UHGV virus genome: UHGV-0117807
Strand: one strand, 5' to 3'
DNA: 10,094 nucleotides
Origin: a virus
Shown: piece after piece, positions 1,238 to 8,456 of the stretch
Position numbering within the stretch: the first letter of the stretch is position 1
Layout of the letters: each line of letters begins with the position of its first letter
Notes under the pieces: model-generated
Told to the model about the DNA's origin: nothing
The model's database searches: none
Seen by the model: only the letters and a program-made list of their open reading frames with translations
Position numbers and translations under genes: made by a program

Positions 1238-1377
1238 GTGAGATCCTCATTTTTGGGTGTTAGAATCCCCGGACCATTGATAGCGCCCATTGGGTTAACT
1301 TTGGTTTTAATGTTGTTTCCGGTGTAACTTTGGTCGGTGAGGCCGGACATGGCGGGCCCACTTCGGTGGGCTTTCGC

Positions 1378-4257: not shown

Positions 4258-4950
4258 TTATGCGAATCTTTTATAATCGACTGACTGTCTCAGCAGTACT
4301 TTAGCCATGACGTAGAACGCGTCCTCATCTTCAGGCTCGACGTACCATTTTTCGTAAATCGGGTTATCGGATATTACTGCCAGCCTGTCTCGCTGCATCT
4401 GCAGGCGCTTAACGTGCAGTGTCTTCCCAAATACGAAGACGTATACACCGTCACCATCAAAGTGCGTAACACCGGTATCAACGAAGATCTGATCACCAGG
4501 TGAAATAGTGCCGTCCATGCTGTCACCATTAACTGTGATCACTTTGACATGCGCAGCTGGACGATTGCCGAACAAGGCTCGCGCCTGCTCAGTCGTGTAT
4601 TCAATGGCTCGGATAGTTTCAATGAAATCGCTGGTGACAATGCTGCCCGGTCCAGCGCTGGCTTTAACGTCGAGTACATCCACGCGGTAAATCCCATTCA
4701 GTGACGGCTTAACCTGGTATAGCGCAGACGGTTCTCTTGCGCTACTGGAAGCCATTTCCCCTTCACCAGTAGACAGCCACTCCGGCCGCACACCAAGAAC
4801 AGAGGCAATCTCAACAGTTTTACGGGAGCCGTTCGCTTCCTTGAGTAGCTTATTGACGCTGGACTGAGCCATGCCGACATCTTTGGCTAATCGGCCCTGT
4901 GTATATCCAGCATATTTCATTGCCTGCGCCAGGCGCTCCGAGAATCCCAT
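4258..4950 (-). CDS. cI: cI-type prophage repressor (N-terminal HTH, C-terminal S24/LexA-like autopeptidase)
   Basis: ORF-track ORF. HTH region YTQGRLAKDVGMAQSSVNKL. Probable Ala-Gly cleavage site in KASAGPG. S24 catalytic Ser in VNGDSMDG and Lys in HVKRL. ATG at 4950 is preferred (AGAGGTGA SD with 5-nt spacing); the in-frame GTG at 4956 is an alternative start. Confidence 0.9.
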   Translation of the reverse strand: MGFSERLAQAMKYAGYTQGRLAKDVGMAQSSVNKLLKEANGSRKTVEIASVLGVRPEWLSTGEGEMASSSAREPSALYQVKPSLNGIYRVDVLDVKASAGPGSIVTSDFIETIRAIEYTTEQARALFGNRPAAHVKVITVNGDSMDGTISPGDQIFVDTGVTHFDGDGVYVFVFGKTLHVKRLQMQRDRLAVISDNPIYEKWYVEPEDEDAFYVMAKVLLRQSVDYKRFA

Positions 4951-4981
4951 ATTCACCTCTGTTAATGACTCCTTTAACTCT

Positions 4982-5063
4982 ATCGCTCAAGCAATTATTT
5001 AGCAAAAAATCGCCTATGCGATTGACATTCGCTAAAGTGATAACCATAATCGCTTTAAACTGA
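4982..5063. promoter_or_regulatory. OR-like operator/promoter region between divergent cI and cro: rightward PR, operator palindromes, and an unlocated PRM
   Basis: PR has a TTGACA -35 (5022-5027), a 17-nt spacer and a CATAAT -10 (5045-5050). A perfect palindrome AATCGCctatGCGATT lies at 5008-5023, with weaker ATCG-N6-CGAT-like sites at 4982-4995 and 5028-5041 and an AATCGC half-site at 5048-5053. A leftward -10 candidate AATAAT (rc of 4994-4999) has no good -35, as expected for an activator-dependent PRM. Confidence 0.6.
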
Positions 5064-5077
5064 TAGCTGAGGTGATT

Positions 5078-5329
5078 ATGAAGACCCCAACAGTAGAGAA
5101 GAACTCCGCAGTAGAGAAAGCGATCGCCATCGCTGGCAGCCAGAAAGAACTGGCAAAACGTTGCGGTAAAGCCCAGTCCACTATCTGCGACTGGCTTAAC
5201 GGAAAGAAACGCATCTCCCCGGTTCACGTTCCTGAGCTGGTGAAAGCGGTTGGTGGTGAAATCCAGGCTCATGAATTCCGCCCGGACCTGCCTTCCATCT
5301 TTCCACACCCTGACAACCATGCCGCCTAA
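5078..5329 (+). CDS. Cro-like small HTH regulator (YdaS/Cro family)
   Basis: ORF-track ORF (GTG 5072 alternative; ATG 5078 preferred, with GAGGTGA SD). HTH region GSQKELAKRCGKAQSTICDWLNG. It is the first gene transcribed from PR, divergent from cI. The C-terminal H-x-x-RPD motif resembles my recollection of YdaS-type proteins. Confidence 0.8.
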   Translation: MKTPTVEKNSAVEKAIAIAGSQKELAKRCGKAQSTICDWLNGKKRISPVHVPELVKAVGGEIQAHEFRPDLPSIFPHPDNHAA

Positions 5330-5359
5330 CCGGCGGCCCTAACAACGAAAGGGAAAGCA

Positions 5360-5905
5360 ATGCATTCACTTGCGTATCAACAAGGTAACAAATTTTCGCC
5401 AACGGCGATGATTTACCAGAATCGCCGGGAACCTGATTCCGCGGCGTTAAACATCGATGGGGTCCGCGCAGCTGTTCGCGCCTGGGCAGCTGATTGCCGC
5501 AGCCGTGAATTTGTCGCTGCTCTGATTGTTGAAGAGTGGCGGGCAACTGGCGGCACTGGTCTGGATATCCCGACTGACTCGCACCGCCAGATGCAGAAGG
5601 TATTTCGCTGGATCGATGGCGACACCGAATACGCCGCCAACAACATTCGCCAGCTGGCCCCGGCAATCATGTCGGTCCTGCCGCTGGAGTACCGAAACCG
5701 TCTGGCGCCGCAGAACGACACGATGTCGCTGATCGCCTCTGCGATGAAAGAGTGTGCCGAGGCTAAACAGGCCGTGCTGCTGGACGCACCAGAGCATCAG
5801 AAGCTGAAAGAGGTAAGCGAGGGTATAGCGTCGCTGTTCCGCCTCATGCCGGAGCAAGTAGGCCCGTTGATGACGATGGTGACGTCGATGCTGGGGGTTA
5901 TGTGA
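5360..5905 (+). CDS. CII-like regulator, YdaT family (181 aa)
   Basis: ORF-track ORF immediately after cro. The segments EEWRATGGTGLDIP and IRQLAPAIMSVLPLEYRNRL resemble my recollection of E. coli Rac YdaT (EEYLRQGGGELPLVP...IQKLIPAILAILPRELRHRL). Recall-based. Confidence 0.7.
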   Translation: MHSLAYQQGNKFSPTAMIYQNRREPDSAALNIDGVRAAVRAWAADCRSREFVAALIVEEWRATGGTGLDIPTDSHRQMQKVFRWIDGDTEYAANNIRQLAPAIMSVLPLEYRNRLAPQNDTMSLIASAMKECAEAKQAVLLDAPEHQKLKEVSEGIASLFRLMPEQVGPLMTMVTSMLGVM

Positions 5906-5994
5906 TGGGAAGTATCAAAAATGGCGAAAGCCAGTCTGCGCGAACAGAACTGGCCTTCAGATGCAAATCGTGTGCACTCATTGCAGGAGGAATA

Positions 5995-6141
5995 ATGGCA
6001 AAAAATCCACGCTATTACCATACCGCTGTACATAAAAACATAGCCCGCGACCGCTTCATCCGCTCGGTTAACCCGATTGTGGCAGAGAAGATGCGCGCCA
6101 TCCTGGAAGAATTGAAACGTAAGGAGAGTGGCCGTGGGTAA
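5995..6141 (+). CDS. Small basic protein (48 aa from ATG 5995; the ORF-track frame extends to GTG 5902)
   Basis: Strong SD AGGAGG (5985-5990) 4 nt before ATG 5995. Product MAKNPRYYHTAVHKNIARDRFIRSVNPIVAEKMRAILEELKRKESGRG. Its stop overlaps the start of the O-like gene. Function unknown. Confidence 0.4.
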   Translation: MAKNPRYYHTAVHKNIARDRFIRSVNPIVAEKMRAILEELKRKESGRG

Positions 6142-7033
6142 CGTATCCAATTTAGCCGAAGCCAGAGAGGCCAGAAGGCTCCAGAAACCGCGCACGAATG
6201 ACGGTAAGGGGTTTGCCTTGCTGCACCGTAAAATTATGGATGTGCCGTTCTACAAGGACGCTGAGGCGGCTCATTTATGGGTTCACCTGCTCCTGCGCGC
6301 TAATCACGAACAGACACTGGTATCGACTGATGTTGGCGATGTGATCTGCGAGCGCGGCGAGTTCATCACCGGGCGTAACACGCTGGCAATGGAAACGGGT
6401 TTGACCGCTGATCGCGTTAAATCACTGCTCCGTAAATTCCAGAATCTGGGCATGATCACCACCAAATCGAACAACCGTTTTACTGTTCTAAAAGTGGTCA
6501 AATATGACGAATATCAGTCAAATTTTTGTCCAGCCGATGTCCAGCCAGTGTCCAGCGCAAACGCAGTAATAACAATGCCTGTGGAGGATGTGTGTCCAGC
6601 CGATGTCCAGCCGGTGTCCACAGATAACAATATATTAAATAACTTACTACCTAAAGGTAGTAAGTATGTCGCAAATGACCAGAACCCCGCTGAAGAGAAA
6701 AAGTCCCGTTTGTCATGCGATGAAGTATGGCAATGCCTGAAAGACGAACTGCCTGAAGCCCGGGGATGGAGATGCCTCACTGATGAGCGACGCAATCTGA
6801 TCCGCACCTTCTGGGGTAAGGCTAACAAGATTGCCCGCAACCTGGACGGCAAGCCGATGGATATGGACGGTTTCAGAAGCTATCTGCGATATATCGCTCA
6901 AAACTGCCGCTGGATGCTTGAAGACCGACCAGACCAGAAATCCGGGAAAACCTGGCGCCGCATGAAATTCGATAAGTTCCTGACCGAAAAGCTCTACATC
7001 GAAGTGCGCGAGGGGGATCGTGATGACCGCTGA
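6134..7033 (+). CDS. Replication initiator, lambda O / P22 gp18-like (N-terminal DNA-binding domain, linker carrying the origin, C-terminal helicase-recruitment domain)
   Basis: ORF-track ORF (GTG 6128; GTG 6134 has better spacing from the AAGGAG SD). The N-terminal domain is a winged-HTH-like initiator fold. The central linker is encoded by the iteron repeats (CPADVQPVSS...CPADVQPVST). Its stop overlaps the helicase start. Confidence 0.8.
   Translation: MGNVSNLAEAREARRLQKPRTNDGKGFALLHRKIMDVPFYKDAEAAHLWVHLLLRANHEQTLVSTDVGDVICERGEFITGRNTLAMETGLTADRVKSLLRKFQNLGMITTKSNNRFTVLKVVKYDEYQSNFCPADVQPVSSANAVITMPVEDVCPADVQPVSTDNNILNNLLPKGSKYVANDQNPAEEKKSRLSCDEVWQCLKDELPEARGWRCLTDERRNLIRTFWGKANKIARNLDGKPMDMDGFRSYLRYIAQNCRWMLEDRPDQKSGKTWRRMKFDKFLTEKLYIEVREGDRDDR
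6527..6664. repeat. Putative phage replication origin inside the O-like gene: two 31-bp direct repeats, each with three ~11-bp iterons, then an AT-rich segment with a perfect 9-bp inverted repeat
   Basis: TGTCCAGCCGATGTCCAGCCAGTGTCCAGCGC at 6527-6558 and TGTCCAGCCGATGTCCAGCCGGTGTCCACAG at 6593-6623, with the GTCCAGC core recurring at 11-bp phasing. An AT-rich stretch (6624-6642) follows. CTTACTACC (6643-6651), taaa, GGTAGTAAG (6656-6664) form a perfect inverted repeat. Confidence 0.6.
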
Positions 7034-8456
7034 ATTCATGGCTGTGCCACAAAACCTCGAAGCGGAGCAGAGCGTTATCGGTGGCCTGCTGCTGGATGAT
7101 GACAACAGCGAGCGAGTCCAGAAGGTTCTGGCGATGCTCAAGCCTGAGTCGTTCTACAGCCGACCTCACCAGCTGATCTTTGCCGAGATGCGCCAGATGT
7201 TCCGCGACAACAAGCCAGTCGATGGTCTGACATTGTTCGACGCGCTCGAAGGCAAAGGGCTCGCGGAGCAGGTAGGTGGCTTTGCTTACCTGGCGGAGAT
7301 CGCCAAGAACACTCCCAGCGCTGCAAACATCGTGGCATACGCTGCGTCAGTCCGGGAAGCCGCAATGGAGCGCTACGGTATCAGCCGCCTGACCGAAGCT
7401 ACTGAGCTGCTGTATTCCCGCAATGGCATGAGCGCCACGCAGAAGTACGAGGCTATTCAGGGTATTTTCACCCAGCTCGCAGACCATTCAAAAACCGGTA
7501 GTCGCCGTGGGTTGCGGTCGTTCGGCGAGGTTATGGATGACTGGGTGGCAGATCTGGAGAAGCGATTTGACCCTTCAGGCGAACAGCGCGGAATGAGTAC
7601 CGGAATCCCGTCACTCGACCGACTGCTGGCGCCGAAAGGTCTGGTTAAAGGCTCTCTGTTCGTGATTGGCGCAAGGCCAAAGATGGGCAAGACAACCCTA
7701 TACGGGCAGATGGCGATCAACTGCGCGGTTCGTGAGAAAAAGCCAGCGCTGATGTTCAGCCTGGAAATGCCAGGCGACCAGATCCTCGAAAAACTGGTTG
7801 GTCAGAAGTCGGGCATTAACCCGAGCATTTTTTACATGCCCGCCACGGATGATGCCGATGACCAGTACCAGGGCGACTACGACGGCGACTTTAAGAAAGC
7901 GATCGCCACAGCCGGTCGGTTGAGTGAAATCGACATGCTATACATCGACGACACTCCTGGCCTGTCACTGGCGCACATCGTTAGCGAAAGCCGCCGAATC
8001 AAGCGCGAGAAGGGCTGCGTAGGAATGATTCTGGTTGACTACCTGACGCTGATGACCGCCGAAAAAGCCGACCGTAATGACCTGGCCTACGGGATGATCA
8101 CCAAAGGTCTGAAGAATCTCGCAAAAGAGCTTGGCTGCGTCGTCGTGCTGCTGACCCAGCTCAACCGCGAACTGGAGAAGCGAGTGAATAAACGCCCGTT
8201 ACCGAGCGATTCCCGCGACACAGGACAGATTGAGCAGGACTGCGACTACTGGGTTGGCATCCACCGTGAAGGTGCTTTCGATGAGAGCGTGCCACCAGGC
8301 GAAACCGAGCTAATCCTGCGGCTTAACCGCCATGGCAGTACCGGCACGGTTTATTGCAATCAGATCAACGGTGCAATTTACGACACAGACCAGCAGGCCG
8401 CCGCCGCAGAACGCCGCGGGCGTGAGCAGCAGCCGAAAAAGAAAGGGGGATTCTGA
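7023..8456 (+). CDS. DnaB-family replicative DNA helicase (phage-encoded, P22 gp12-like)
   Basis: ORF-track ORF of 478 aa. The N-terminus PQNLEAEQSVIGGLLLDD is the DnaB N-domain signature. Walker A GARPKMGKT; Walker B-like MLYIDD; LLTQLNR motif. GAGGGGG SD upstream; the start overlaps the O-like stop. Confidence 0.9.
   Translation: MTAEFMAVPQNLEAEQSVIGGLLLDDDNSERVQKVLAMLKPESFYSRPHQLIFAEMRQMFRDNKPVDGLTLFDALEGKGLAEQVGGFAYLAEIAKNTPSAANIVAYAASVREAAMERYGISRLTEATELLYSRNGMSATQKYEAIQGIFTQLADHSKTGSRRGLRSFGEVMDDWVADLEKRFDPSGEQRGMSTGIPSLDRLLAPKGLVKGSLFVIGARPKMGKTTLYGQMAINCAVREKKPALMFSLEMPGDQILEKLVGQKSGINPSIFYMPATDDADDQYQGDYDGDFKKAIATAGRLSEIDMLYIDDTPGLSLAHIVSESRRIKREKGCVGMILVDYLTLMTAEKADRNDLAYGMITKGLKNLAKELGCVVVLLTQLNRELEKRVNKRPLPSDSRDTGQIEQDCDYWVGIHREGAFDESVPPGETELILRLNRHGSTGTVYCNQINGAIYDTDQQAAAAERRGREQQPKKKGGF

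Follow-up and report, generated by a model that had tools for sequence, protein, structure and literature searches.

A probable theta-replication origin within the initiator gene of a lambdoid prophage: six 11-bp iterons, an A+T-rich stretch and a conserved inverted repeat

The window analysed in this study is a stretch of 10,094 nucleotides from UHGV virus genome UHGV-0117807. Downstream of CI-like, Cro-like and CII-like genes it carries a replication initiator gene paired with a gene for a DnaB-type helicase, and the middle of the initiator gene holds an ordered series of DNA elements. The features of the locus are as follows:

6134-7033, plus strand: O-like / gene-18-like replication initiator gene, 299 aa (phrog_345 'replication initiation O-like', 1.9e-68)
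6203-6517, plus strand: N-terminal winged-helix-like domain, presumed iteron-binding (residues about 24-128)
6527-6559, plus strand: iterons 1-3, TGTCCAGCCGA TGTCCAGCCAG TGTCCAGCGCA, 11-bp units head-to-tail
6560-6592, plus strand: spacer between the triplets, 33 bp, conserved in length and variable in sequence and peptide
6593-6625, plus strand: iterons 4-6, TGTCCAGCCGA TGTCCAGCCGG TGTCCACAGAT, the sixth being a conserved half-unit
6626-6641, plus strand: A+T-rich stretch AACAATATATTAAATA, presumed DNA-unwinding element (16 bp, 94% A+T)
6642-6665, no strand assigned: perfect inverted repeat ACTTACTACCT-aa-AGGTAGTAAGT with 11-bp arms
6710-7033, plus strand: C-terminal helical domain, presumed helicase-recruiting (pLDDT about 80-89, residues 200-290)
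7023-8456, plus strand: DnaB-type replicative helicase gene (P22 gene-12-like), overlapping the end of the initiator gene

The longest open reading frame of the initiator gene begins at a GTG codon at 6128 (301 aa, 6128-7033), while relatives are annotated from the equivalent of 6134. Homologues of the protein number 1,674. It is 97% identical to CobraSix gp58 and 92.5% identical to Chronis gp46, a 'putative DNA replication protein' by annotation, and it shares 42-52% identity with Sf6 gp43, ST64T gp18 and the O proteins of HK630 and a Stx1 phage; in tblastn searches the identities were 42.5% for Sf6, 48.8% for ST64T and 51.8% for HK630, over 91-100% of the length. Its C-terminal stretch matches phrog_24933 (1.3e-37) and is weakly similar to the C-terminus of P22 gp18 (E = 8e-4). 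The helicase gene matches Pfam DnaB_C (5.2e-58) and DnaB (2.6e-31) as well as phrog_19 (2.3e-131). Comparison of the initiator with lambda O gave no significant similarity (BLASTP E = 2.3), and the Pfam family Phage_rep_O (PF04492), which recognizes lambda O at 5.7e-36 and P22 gp18 at 6.7e-38, did not match the initiator even at E <= 10. An hhalign comparison with a two-sequence profile of lambda O and P22 gp18 aligned the helix-turn-helix segments, though not significantly (E = 0.11, probability 0.5%), and a PDB profile search with the initiator family profile returned nothing meaningful (best E = 0.17).

The AlphaFold2 model of the initiator has a mean pLDDT of 60.7 because of a low-confidence linker, residues 123-193 (pLDDT <50), which lies between a winged-helix-like N-terminal domain and the helical C-terminal domain. 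The N-terminal domain is modelled with medium confidence (pLDDT 70-80) as four helices (27-37, 45-57, 83-90 and 94-106, numbered from 6128) and two hairpins (59-80 and 110-123). Foldseek comparison of the model with the PDB returned weak matches to CRP-type winged helices (E about 0.01, TM about 0.2-0.3), which are consistent with a winged helix and give no usable identification. Since the initiator shows neither significant similarity to lambda O nor a Phage_rep_O match, the presumed DNA-binding role of its N-terminal domain is predicted from the medium-confidence model and these weak fold matches. The whole region of repeats, A+T-rich sequence and inverted repeat falls inside the low-confidence, linker-coding part of the gene.

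Six 11-bp direct repeats occupy 6527-6625 in two triplets, the second starting 66 bp after the first. Tandem Repeats Finder reported 11-bp arrays at 6527-6556 and 6593-6620, and a general repeat search found the same structure as a 33-nt direct repeat (6522-6554 and 6588-6620, 91% identical, 66 bp from start to start). The units run head-to-tail, three and three, and none is dyad-symmetric in itself. All five copies of the 8-mer TGTCCAGC in the 10-kb window belong to the array (6527, 6538, 6549, 6593 and 6604), and the sixth in-phase site, at 6615, keeps only TGTCCA (the unit reads TGTCCAC), so that the unit at 6615-6625, TGTCCACAGAT, is a conserved half-unit. The shorter 7-mer GTCCAGC was observed nine times in the window against 1.31 expected, a count reached in none of 200 shuffles. 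Four of these occurrences fall outside the array, within the cI and cII-like genes; all four lack the complete TGTCCAGC core, and they were treated as chance. Directly after the last unit comes the A+T-rich stretch, and G+C content falls to 0.225 across 6620-6659. The arms of the inverted repeat that follows (6642-6652 and 6655-6665) are 11 nt each, 100% complementary and 2 nt apart. Perfect inverted repeats with arms of at least 9 were found in only 0.2% of control 80-nt windows, and when this one was folded as single-stranded DNA it formed a hairpin of -8.0 kcal/mol (z = -6.8). A possible DnaA box in the sixth half-unit (TGTCCACAG, 7/9 to TTATCCACA by eye) was rejected, class B relatives having TGTCCATAAAC there, and a scan with TTWTNCACA allowing up to one mismatch found no DnaA box in the candidate origin. 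An Rfam scan of the region matched no known RNA family.

An earlier note, made from the letters of this DNA, had described most of these elements. The model and the phrog_345 match bear out its placing of the sites where an O-like initiator gene codes for a linker. The A+T-rich stretch after the repeats is confirmed, and the duplicated peptide CPADVQPVS(S/T) that it named is found in the 301-aa reading frame. Both of its arrays of three approximately 11-bp iterons were confirmed, with the qualification that only five of the six units hold the full core. The perfect inverted repeat is likewise present, although its length had been put slightly short at 9 bp.

Comparison with relatives showed that the arrangement is conserved. 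In all 27 full-length relatives, whose proteins are 42-97% identical to the initiator and whose hosts include Enterobacter, Klebsiella, Salmonella, Escherichia, Shigella, Pantoea, Erwinia, Cronobacter, Raoultella and others, the same position of the gene contains three 11-bp units, a 33-bp spacer, three further 11-bp units, an A+T-rich gap and an inverted repeat with arms of 9-11 bp. The spacer measures 33 bp in every one of these loci; its sequence differs among them and the peptide that it encodes is hypervariable. The gap is 84-100% A+T and is 16-22 bp long in 26 of the 27 loci, with a single locus (L018) at 8 bp. In the 13 loci of the window's repeat class (class A), all 65 of the 65 units have TGTCCA without change, 62 have G7 and 61 have C8, and the sixth unit is TGTCCACAGAT in all 13. 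The class A array was also found on at least 120 IMG/VR contigs, where the arrays were 66 bp apart in 101 of 103 double matches and a reading frame with the N-terminal-domain motif lay upstream of the arrays in 103 of 107 cases. About 20 contigs carry Salmonella variants with a single triplet, the result of a 22-aa deletion (66 bp between the triplets) that leaves a 277-aa protein; it may be that not all six sites are needed, or these prophages may be defective.

A period of 11 bp does not divide into whole codons, so the reading frame crosses identical 8-mers in each of the three codon phases (TGT CCA GCC / GTC CAG CC. / TCC AGC). Identity at third codon positions is 0.82-0.91 over the first triplet, compared with roughly 0.5 for the N-terminal domain, which is equally conserved, and in the other repeat classes the encoded peptides are different (VPADYQQIT, CPTVVQRLS, VPTECQQ...) while the DNA geometry is unchanged. 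Comparison of these sequences thus indicates that selection on the repeats acts at the DNA level, with synonymous sites frozen. It is very unlikely that the repeats are simply a duplication within a flexible protein linker, selected as peptide or not at all and having no role as DNA. The triplets do encode a duplicated peptide, and a stretch modelled with such low confidence would tolerate duplications, and a 22-aa deletion variant is known; however, an 11-bp sub-period running through three codon phases cannot arise by selection on a peptide, the synonymous positions of the core are invariant in 65 of 65 units, third-position identity lies far above that of the flanking domain, and quite different peptides in other classes keep the same DNA geometry.

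The same regularity bears on an existing annotation. In the genome of Enterobacter sp. LU1 an identical repeat, TGTCCAGCCGATGTCCAGCCAGTGTCCA, has been reported as a CRISPR region with one spacer at evidence level 1 (PMC7402333), and by that reading the window would hold a minimal array of two 28-bp repeats around one spacer. We regard this as scarcely credible, because the array sits inside a conserved reading frame, the supposed repeat itself consists of three 11-bp units, the supposed spacer is fixed at 33 bp in all relatives, none of the 18 window reading frames scanned matched a Cas family, and the LU1 array itself is within a region called an intact prophage (PMC7402333). No cas genes, leader or spacer turnover were seen.

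Five repeat classes were distinguished among the relatives, with cores TGTCCAGC, TGTCCAAC, TACCAGC, TGCCAAC and TACCAAC. The variation among them is confined to three core positions, the two letters preceding CCA (GT, TA or TG) and the one following it (G or A). Identity of the N-terminal domain separates cleanly along these classes: it is never below 0.73 for members of one class or above 0.64 for members of different classes. Identity of the C-terminal domain does not track them, with values as low as 0.21 for members of one class and as high as 1.00 for members of different ones. Natural chimeras display the same division. In one relative (L022, protein P0016) the inverted repeat is that of the window and the C-terminal domain matches the window's at 98% identity, but the N-terminal domain reaches only 64% and the repeats read TACCAGC; another (L007) shares the N-terminal domain and repeats of the window and differs in inverted repeat and C-terminal domain. 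This pattern is in keeping with origin specificity being set by the initiator's N-terminal domain. Some of the tracking could reflect physical linkage during mosaic exchange, although linkage as the whole cause is disfavoured because the periodic structure is precise in every class.

These joints also raise the question of whether the elements are mainly 'boundary sequences' at which lambdoid phages recombine to exchange N- and C-terminal modules, and not an origin. Mosaic joints do lie here, as L022 and L007 demonstrate, and a 66-bp deletion between triplets has occurred. Short shared homology would cover such joints but not the 11-bp periodicity, the class-specific cores, the fixed spacer, the A+T-rich stretch or the compensated inverted repeat, and we consider boundary sequences without an origin highly improbable. 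A recombination joint at this position is compatible with an origin and probably follows from one.

The inverted repeat has diverged in sequence, and the peptide that it encodes is free to vary, yet its pairing has been kept. Among relatives there are 11 different arm sequences, compensatory double changes are seen at 9 of 10 pairs, and 98.3% of cells are paired, a result matched in none of 500 shuffles. The changes are almost purely Watson-Crick, with no one-sided change and a single G-T cell among 120. As judged from these alignments, there is clear evidence that the inverted repeat beside the presumed unwinding element is under selection. We know of no function assigned to an inverted repeat at this position, lambda included.

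One reading would give both elements a different task, the repeats being initiator-binding sites with a mainly regulatory role (autoregulation or titration, incompatibility with or exclusion of related phages, or a block to transcription) and the inverted repeat with its T-rich run being a leftward antisense terminator. Read on the minus strand, the inverted repeat and the TATTTAATAT that follows it did score as terminator-like, and cloned lambda iterons with oop inhibit rep-lambda phages (PMC3349717), so such arrays can have a second role. The stem has only 4 G-C pairs out of 10, however, and its tail is interrupted by an A; terminator-like sites in the region scanned numbered 4 against 2.4 expected, so that the match is not above background; and no minus-strand promoter-like site was found downstream in 4800-7200. 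The almost purely Watson-Crick compensation is more in keeping with a palindrome acting as DNA than with an RNA hairpin, and the invariant A+T-rich stretch beside the last unit would be left unexplained by a regulatory role. Taken as the main function of the locus, such a role appears improbable.

We consider it highly probable, on the evidence of sequence comparison, that 6527-6665 is the theta-replication origin of a lambdoid prophage, lying inside the linker-coding part of the gene for its own initiator; the host of the prophage is most likely of the Enterobacter/Klebsiella type. The proposal of the earlier note that the repeats belong to an origin is supported by the layout common to all 27 relatives and by the tracking of repeats with the N-terminal domain. 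From the arrangement we infer how binding, unwinding and helicase recruitment would proceed and how the inverted repeat would take part. Rightward early transcription would lead to synthesis of the initiator, whose winged-helix-like N-terminal domain would bind the 8-bp core, TGTCCAGC, within the 11-bp units. Asymmetric units that follow one another head-to-tail at intervals of one helical turn would place the bound domains on one face of the DNA, in two arrays of three that are 66 bp (six repeat periods) apart. The resulting nucleoprotein complex would strain and open the adjoining 16-bp A+T-rich stretch, and the C-terminal domain would recruit the DnaB-type helicase of the phage itself, encoded by the next gene. 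The inverted repeat may act through its structure, either as a hairpin or cruciform on the unwound DNA or as a symmetric landing site.

A more specific proposal can be offered only tentatively. It is possible, though rather doubtful, that the initiator-origin complex is built unlike the lambda O-some, with single winged-helix domains on asymmetric sites, two one-sided arrays of three and a conserved half-site by the unwinding element, and with the inverted repeat, maintained purely by compensatory change, required structurally as a hairpin or cruciform on unwound DNA for loading the DnaB-type helicase of the phage. If this were true, the three variable core positions would amount to a small, readable recognition code for origin specificity.

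For annotation, these results place the predicted origin of a common group of prophages of Enterobacter, Klebsiella and Salmonella and explain a recurrent false CRISPR call (PMC7402333). They add little that is new to the biology, extending to one more class the lambdoid rule that the origin lies in the initiator gene and that specificity lies in the N-terminal domain. Two by-products may be useful: the compensatory-change evidence for selection on the inverted repeat, and the five repeat classes matched to variants of the N-terminal domain, together with natural domain-swap chimeras.

Lambda provides the nearest model for the overall plan. In lambda, each iteron is bound by an O dimer. The lambda origin likewise lies in the middle of initiator gene O, between the parts coding for the N-terminal origin-binding and C-terminal helicase-recruiting domains (PMC7466680), in lambda O and P22 gene 18, as in the window, the repeats lead into an A+T-rich stretch and this into an inverted repeat, and in lambdoid O proteins origin specificity is set by the N-terminal domain (PMC2629481). 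The binding sites themselves differ, since lambda has four iterons of roughly 18 bp, each an imperfect inverted repeat (PMC7466680), whereas the window has six asymmetric 11-bp units arranged head-to-tail. The partners differ as well, with a phage DnaB-type helicase in the window in place of a lambda-P-type loader of host DnaB. The earlier description of the locus as a lambda arrangement is thus apt for the layout; it does not extend to the type of site or to the protein, which lacks both detectable sequence similarity to lambda O and a Phage_rep_O match. The 'six iterons' described for Shiga-toxin phages 933W and P27 (PMC7466680) are lambda-type 18-bp sites of a different family and are not the precedent for the array seen here.

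P22 has the same gene pair as the window, initiator gene 18 and DnaB-type helicase gene 12, and its origin, like the one predicted in the window, has repeats and an A+T-rich stretch, together with a short inverted repeat whose centre is CCTAAAGG. Its four repeats, about 20 bp long with core TCGGTAAAAC, are unlike the six 11-bp units, and the N-terminal domain of its gp18 is of the lambda type (Phage_rep_O), which that of the window initiator is not.

The N-terminal domain significantly matches PHROG families of 'DnaD-like helicase loader' proteins (phrog_2514, 6.7e-23), and tblastn found remote matches in staphylococcal phage genes (about 28-37% identity over 100-170 residues). The SPP1 gene 38 and staphylococcal DnaD-like initiators bind repeats within or beside their own genes. 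In these Gram-positive replisome organisers (SPP1 gene 38 with oriL, and the staphylococcal DnaD-like proteins), the C-terminal domains and the helicase-loading partners differ from those of the window.

The closest correspondence is with phages L, Sf6, HK620, HK022 and ST64T and the VT2-Sakai/Stx1 module, which have an initiator of the same family (42-52% identity, phrog_345) and the same geometry. The Sf6 protein matches phrog_345 at 5.9e-85, its array has identical geometry and is followed by an A+T-rich stretch and inverted repeat as in the window, and the homologous repeat region is annotated in the Sf6 record as a putative rep_origin. In Sf6, ST64T and CobraSix, as in the window, the DnaB-type helicase gene lies directly downstream of the initiator gene. 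Gene 18 of phage L has been described as containing six imprecise 11-bp repeats, TGTCCAACGGA, called the likely origin (PMC8022706), and the same paper cites genetic evidence that the replication modules of L and P22 are exchangeable only as wholes; our comparison with the L type of initiator was made through Sf6 gp43 and the ST64T-type gene-18 protein. Apart from the paper with the false CRISPR call, the phage L paper was the one publication returned by literature searches with the repeat sequence, and no experimental origin study for the 11-bp-repeat family was found in the literature searched. For L, Sf6 and HK620, too, the origin is a prediction. CobraSix and Chronis, the closest phages of the window's own class, have no annotated origin. 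The same layout having already been predicted in L, Sf6 and HK620, the window is an ordinary further example of it. What sets the window apart is its core, TGTCCAGC as compared with TGTCCAAC in L, Sf6 and ST64T or TACCAGC in HK630 and the Stx1 phage; the repeat sequence TGTCCAACGGA of L, Sf6 and ST64T is absent here, position 7 being G and not A in 62 of the 65 class A units, and the N-terminal domain is only 46-64% identical to that of relatives of the L, Sf6, ST64T, HK630 and Stx1 type. The repeats of the window are accordingly predicted to represent a separate specificity class within the L/Sf6/HK620-type family.

The gene content of the window is that of the immunity and replication region of a lambdoid prophage, with the O-like initiator gene lying 3' of an HkaW/orf48-like ORF and followed by a helicase gene.

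Genes of the immunity and replication region
4258-4956, minus strand: CI-like repressor gene
5072-5329: Cro-like gene
5360-5905, plus strand: CII-like gene, also matching Pfam YdaT_toxin (2.1e-27)
5902-6141, plus strand: HkaW/orf48-like small ORF (79 aa), matching phrog_1913, labelled 'tail protein'
6134-7033, plus strand: O-like initiator gene, matching phrog_345 (1.9e-68)
3' of the initiator gene: DnaB-type helicase gene (Pfam DnaB and DnaB_C)
3' of the helicase gene: Ren-like gene

HK620, HK022 and P22 have this HkaW/orf48 homologue in the interval from cII to O, so 'tail protein' is almost certainly a wrong label copied from record to record. Amid small ORFs without assigned function in the window's left part, positions 1279-1376 (plus strand) match the Rfam family of the isrB Hfq-binding sRNA (RF01386; 38.2 bits, gathering score 35, E = 4e-4). 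In the initiator gene, identity is 97% with Enterobacter phage CobraSix and 92.5% with Klebsiella phage Chronis, and origin annotation is absent from both records. AlphaFold2 predicts a winged-helix-like N-terminal domain (helices 83-90 and 94-106, hairpin 110-123), a middle part with pLDDT <50 (residues 123-193) and a confident, helical C-terminal domain; the following elements all lie inside the coding stretch for the low-pLDDT part.

Elements within the initiator gene
6527-6559: triplet 1, units TGTCCAGCCGA, TGTCCAGCCAG, TGTCCAGCGCA
Between the triplets: spacer, 33 bp
6593-6625: triplet 2, units TGTCCAGCCGA, TGTCCAGCCGG, TGTCCACAGAT
6626-6641: A+T-rich stretch, 16 bp, 94% A+T
6642-6652 and 6655-6665: perfect inverted repeat, 11-nt arms

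The earlier note had described six iterons, an A+T-rich stretch and a perfect 9-bp inverted repeat. Tandem Repeats Finder bears out the repeats (11-bp arrays at 6527-6556 and 6593-6620), as does a repeat search of the window (a 33-nt direct repeat, copies 91% identical, starts 66 bp apart); the A+T-rich stretch is where it was placed, and the inverted repeat is present with slightly longer arms. The sole correction concerns the sixth of the 11-bp positions (6615-6625, adjoining the A+T-rich stretch), a half-unit in which the 5' half is retained and the 3' half swapped. All five copies of the 8-mer TGTCCAGC in the window fall within 6527-6625, and the 7-mer GTCCAGC occurs 9 times against 1.31 expected, a count reached by 0 of 200 shuffles.

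These repeats very probably constitute the phage replication origin: the N-terminal domain of the initiator would bind them within its own gene, DNA would unwind in the neighbouring A+T-rich stretch (the predicted unwinding element), and the C-terminal domain would bring in the phage's DnaB-type helicase. The origin proposed in the earlier note is supported, through comparative evidence. A literature search found no experimental study on any member of the 11-bp-repeat family; this kind of origin was known before as a prediction, to which the window adds another member.

The duplicated peptide of the earlier note (CPADVQPVSS ... CPADVQPVST) is encoded in the ORF at 6128-7033, but a peptide-level duplication in the protein linker is contradicted by the three-phase periodicity of the repeats and by their frozen synonymous sites. 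Since 11 is not a multiple of 3, successive copies of one 8-mer are translated as TGT-CCA-GCC, (.)GTC-CAG-CC(.) and (..)TCC-AGC; the frame returns after three units (3x11 = 33), which is the only reason for a repeat in the peptide. Every core position falls on the third base of a codon in one of these phases, yet TGTCCA is invariant in 65/65 full units of 13 class A loci (the repeat class of the window). Third-position identity, averaged over pairs, is 0.82-0.91 in triplet 1 and 0.77-0.82 in triplet 2 but only ~0.5 in the N-terminal domain, where amino-acid identity is similar to or above that over the triplets. Other repeat classes encode unrelated peptides with the DNA geometry unchanged, and these patterns indicate that selection acts on the repeat DNA. 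Third-position identity is also high (0.83-0.91) from ~30 bp upstream of unit 1 (6494-6526, over AAATATGACGAATATCAGTCAAATTTT); the origin may extend left of the repeats, or a strongly conserved KYDEYQ peptide may lie behind this signal.

The repeats have also been taken for a CRISPR array: the same 28-bp repeat, TGTCCAGCCGATGTCCAGCCAGTGTCCA, was reported from Enterobacter sp. LU1 as a single-spacer CRISPR of evidence level 1 (PMC7402333, Table 4), at chromosome positions 1,143,757-1,143,850, which correspond to window 6527-6620 and lie inside a region called intact prophage (PMC7402333). However, the repeats are inside a conserved ORF, the reported repeat is itself built of 11-bp sub-repeats, and none of the window's scanned ORFs matches a Cas family; the LU1 call is a false positive from this predicted origin.

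Among fetched genomic and phage loci of relatives (42-97% protein identity), every full-length member (27 loci) has the same layout in the same place: three 11-bp units, a spacer of 33 bp and variable sequence, three further units of which the last is degenerate, an A+T gap (84-100% A+T; 16-22 bp in 26/27 loci, 8 bp in one) and a perfect inverted repeat (arms 9-11 bp). The unit sequences sort into five classes, with differences confined to two bases 5' and one base 3' of CCA.

Classes of repeat unit
Class A, TGTCCAGCCGA: the window, CobraSix, Chronis; Enterobacter, Kosakonia, Citrobacter, Izhakiella, Erwinia, Rosenbergiella and Tatumella prophages
Class B, TGTCCAACGGA: Sf6, ST64T, SW-70, ENT47670
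Class C, (G/T)TACCAGCAGA: HK630, a Stx1 phage, some Klebsiella and Enterobacter prophages
Class D, TGCCAACAGAA: Raoultella, Pantoea and Klebsiella prophages
Class E, TTACCAACAGA: Pantoea phage PA-1

In relatives too, the sixth position is always such a half-unit: TGTCCACAGAT in 13/13 class A loci, and TGTCCATAAAC, TTACCACAGAT and TGCCACAAAC in classes B, C and D, respectively. That a 'defective' site is kept so strictly points to a special function at the border of the predicted unwinding element. The class A module is common, as a pattern scan of IMG/VR for its triplet matched at least 120 contigs. Among the matches listed, the arrays are 66 bp apart in 101/103 double matches, a downstream inverted repeat of at least 9 bp is present in 108/117 contigs, and an open frame with the N-terminal-domain motif precedes the array in 103/107.

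There is evidence, worth keeping, that the inverted repeat is under selection for pairing. Perfect arms of 9-11 bp around a 2-4-nt centre occur in 28/28 loci (window included) with 11 different arm sequences, while perfect arms of at least 9 bp occur in 0.2% of control windows. Aligning 12 distinct versions shows 98.3% of cells paired, both-sided changes at 9/10 pairs and one-sided changes at none; no shuffle matched the pairing values, and slid registers drop to 29-51% paired. As single-stranded DNA the hairpins reach -7.5 to -8.7 kcal/mol (z between -4.8 and -6.8). With G-T intermediates nearly absent, selection of a palindrome at the DNA level is a better fit than selection in RNA. A consensus scan flagged the inverted repeat and a T-rich run as a minus-strand terminator, but the scan was not above background, the stem is weak, the T-rich tail is interrupted and the compensatory changes are Watson-Crick only. 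We infer a structural role beside the predicted unwinding element.

The repeat classes follow the N-terminal domain. In a comparison of 26 genes, two N-terminal domains (residues 24-128) share an identity of at least 0.73 if their repeats are of one class and of at most 0.64 if they are not, whereas C-terminal-domain identity falls to 0.21 within and rises to 1.00 between classes. This match of five classes to N-terminal-domain variants is worth keeping, together with the natural chimeras. Two Klebsiella pneumoniae prophage loci encoding initiator variant P0016 (L022, the cleanest case, and L023; 2893-3020) are domain swaps: their C-terminal domain is 98% identical to that of the window and the A+T-rich stretch and inverted repeat match, but the N-terminal domain is just 64% identical and the repeats are class C (TACCAGCAG), providing a ready-made specificity control. 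Locus L007 is the converse: its N-terminal domain and repeats are those of the window, its inverted repeat and C-terminal domain are not. The elements could also be read as a recombination boundary, which is compatible with an origin and probably its consequence, because the origin lies at the joint of two domains.

Several variants depart from the full layout. In two Salmonella enterica prophages (L024, L025; locus ~2893-2960), an initiator 22 aa (66 bp) shorter (P0008, 277 aa) carries a single triplet, TGTCCAGCCGA TGTCCAGCCGG TGTCCACAGAT, before the usual A+T-rich stretch and inverted repeat, which fits unequal crossover between triplets; because this protein is seen on ~20 contigs, either three units suffice or a defective prophage has spread. 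Variant P0028 (246 aa; a 2.3-kb ENA contig) is missing everything from just past triplet 2 up to the C-terminal domain, including the A+T-rich stretch and inverted repeat, and is probably a defective copy or assembly artefact. Distant initiators on IMG/VR contigs (L037/L074, L131, L155; 27-30% identity to the window's N-terminal domain) contain four to six contiguous 11-bp TGTCCAGC units ending in TGTCCAC and then A+T-rich DNA; the 33-bp spacer is absent and an inverted repeat is not obvious. On visual inspection, the C-terminal domain resembles lambda O in L131 (...WANDIRLMIERD...NVLSPSKLRKRF...) and DnaD in L037; the N-terminal domain and repeats may be a portable cassette joined to various helicase-recruiting domains. 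Homologous initiator and DnaB-helicase modules (48-52% identity) are also present in two phage-sized sequences deposited as plasmids, NZ_CP044141.1 (E. coli, 50,155 bp) and CP026278.1 (K. oxytoca, 48,636 bp); these may be phage genomes in circular form or extrachromosomally replicating phage-plasmids.

Compared to the lambda origin, to which the earlier note had likened this one, the layout is the same, and counterpart inverted repeats occupy the same relative place in lambda (TCAGAGAATTC...GAATCCTCTGA) and P22 (CCCCCT-aa-AGGGGG). The initiator, however, falls outside the strict lambda O family: it has no match to Pfam Phage_rep_O, for which lambda O and P22 gp18 score ~1e-36 to 1e-38, and no significant similarity to lambda O by BLASTP or hhalign. 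The sites also differ, being short, asymmetric and head-to-tail rather than dyad-symmetric. Likeness to P22 gp18 is limited to the extreme C-terminus (E = 8e-4), which fits both proteins working with a DnaB-type helicase. The tracking of repeats with the N-terminal domain matches classical lambdoid O proteins, whose N-terminal part carries origin specificity (PMC2629481; PMC8022706). In the Sf6 record, a rep_origin feature coincides exactly with the homologous repeats and is described there as a lambda-like origin ('repeat region reminiscent of the phage lambda origin; similar to phage HK620'), and gene 18 of phage L contains six imprecise 11-bp repeats (TGTCCAACGGA), likely its origin, unlike the four roughly 20-bp repeats of lambda and P22 (PMC8022706). 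In the class B phages core position 7 is A, where the window has G, and their N-terminal domain is 46-54% identical to that of the window. The window is therefore a member of the Sf6/L-type family with a different predicted specificity.
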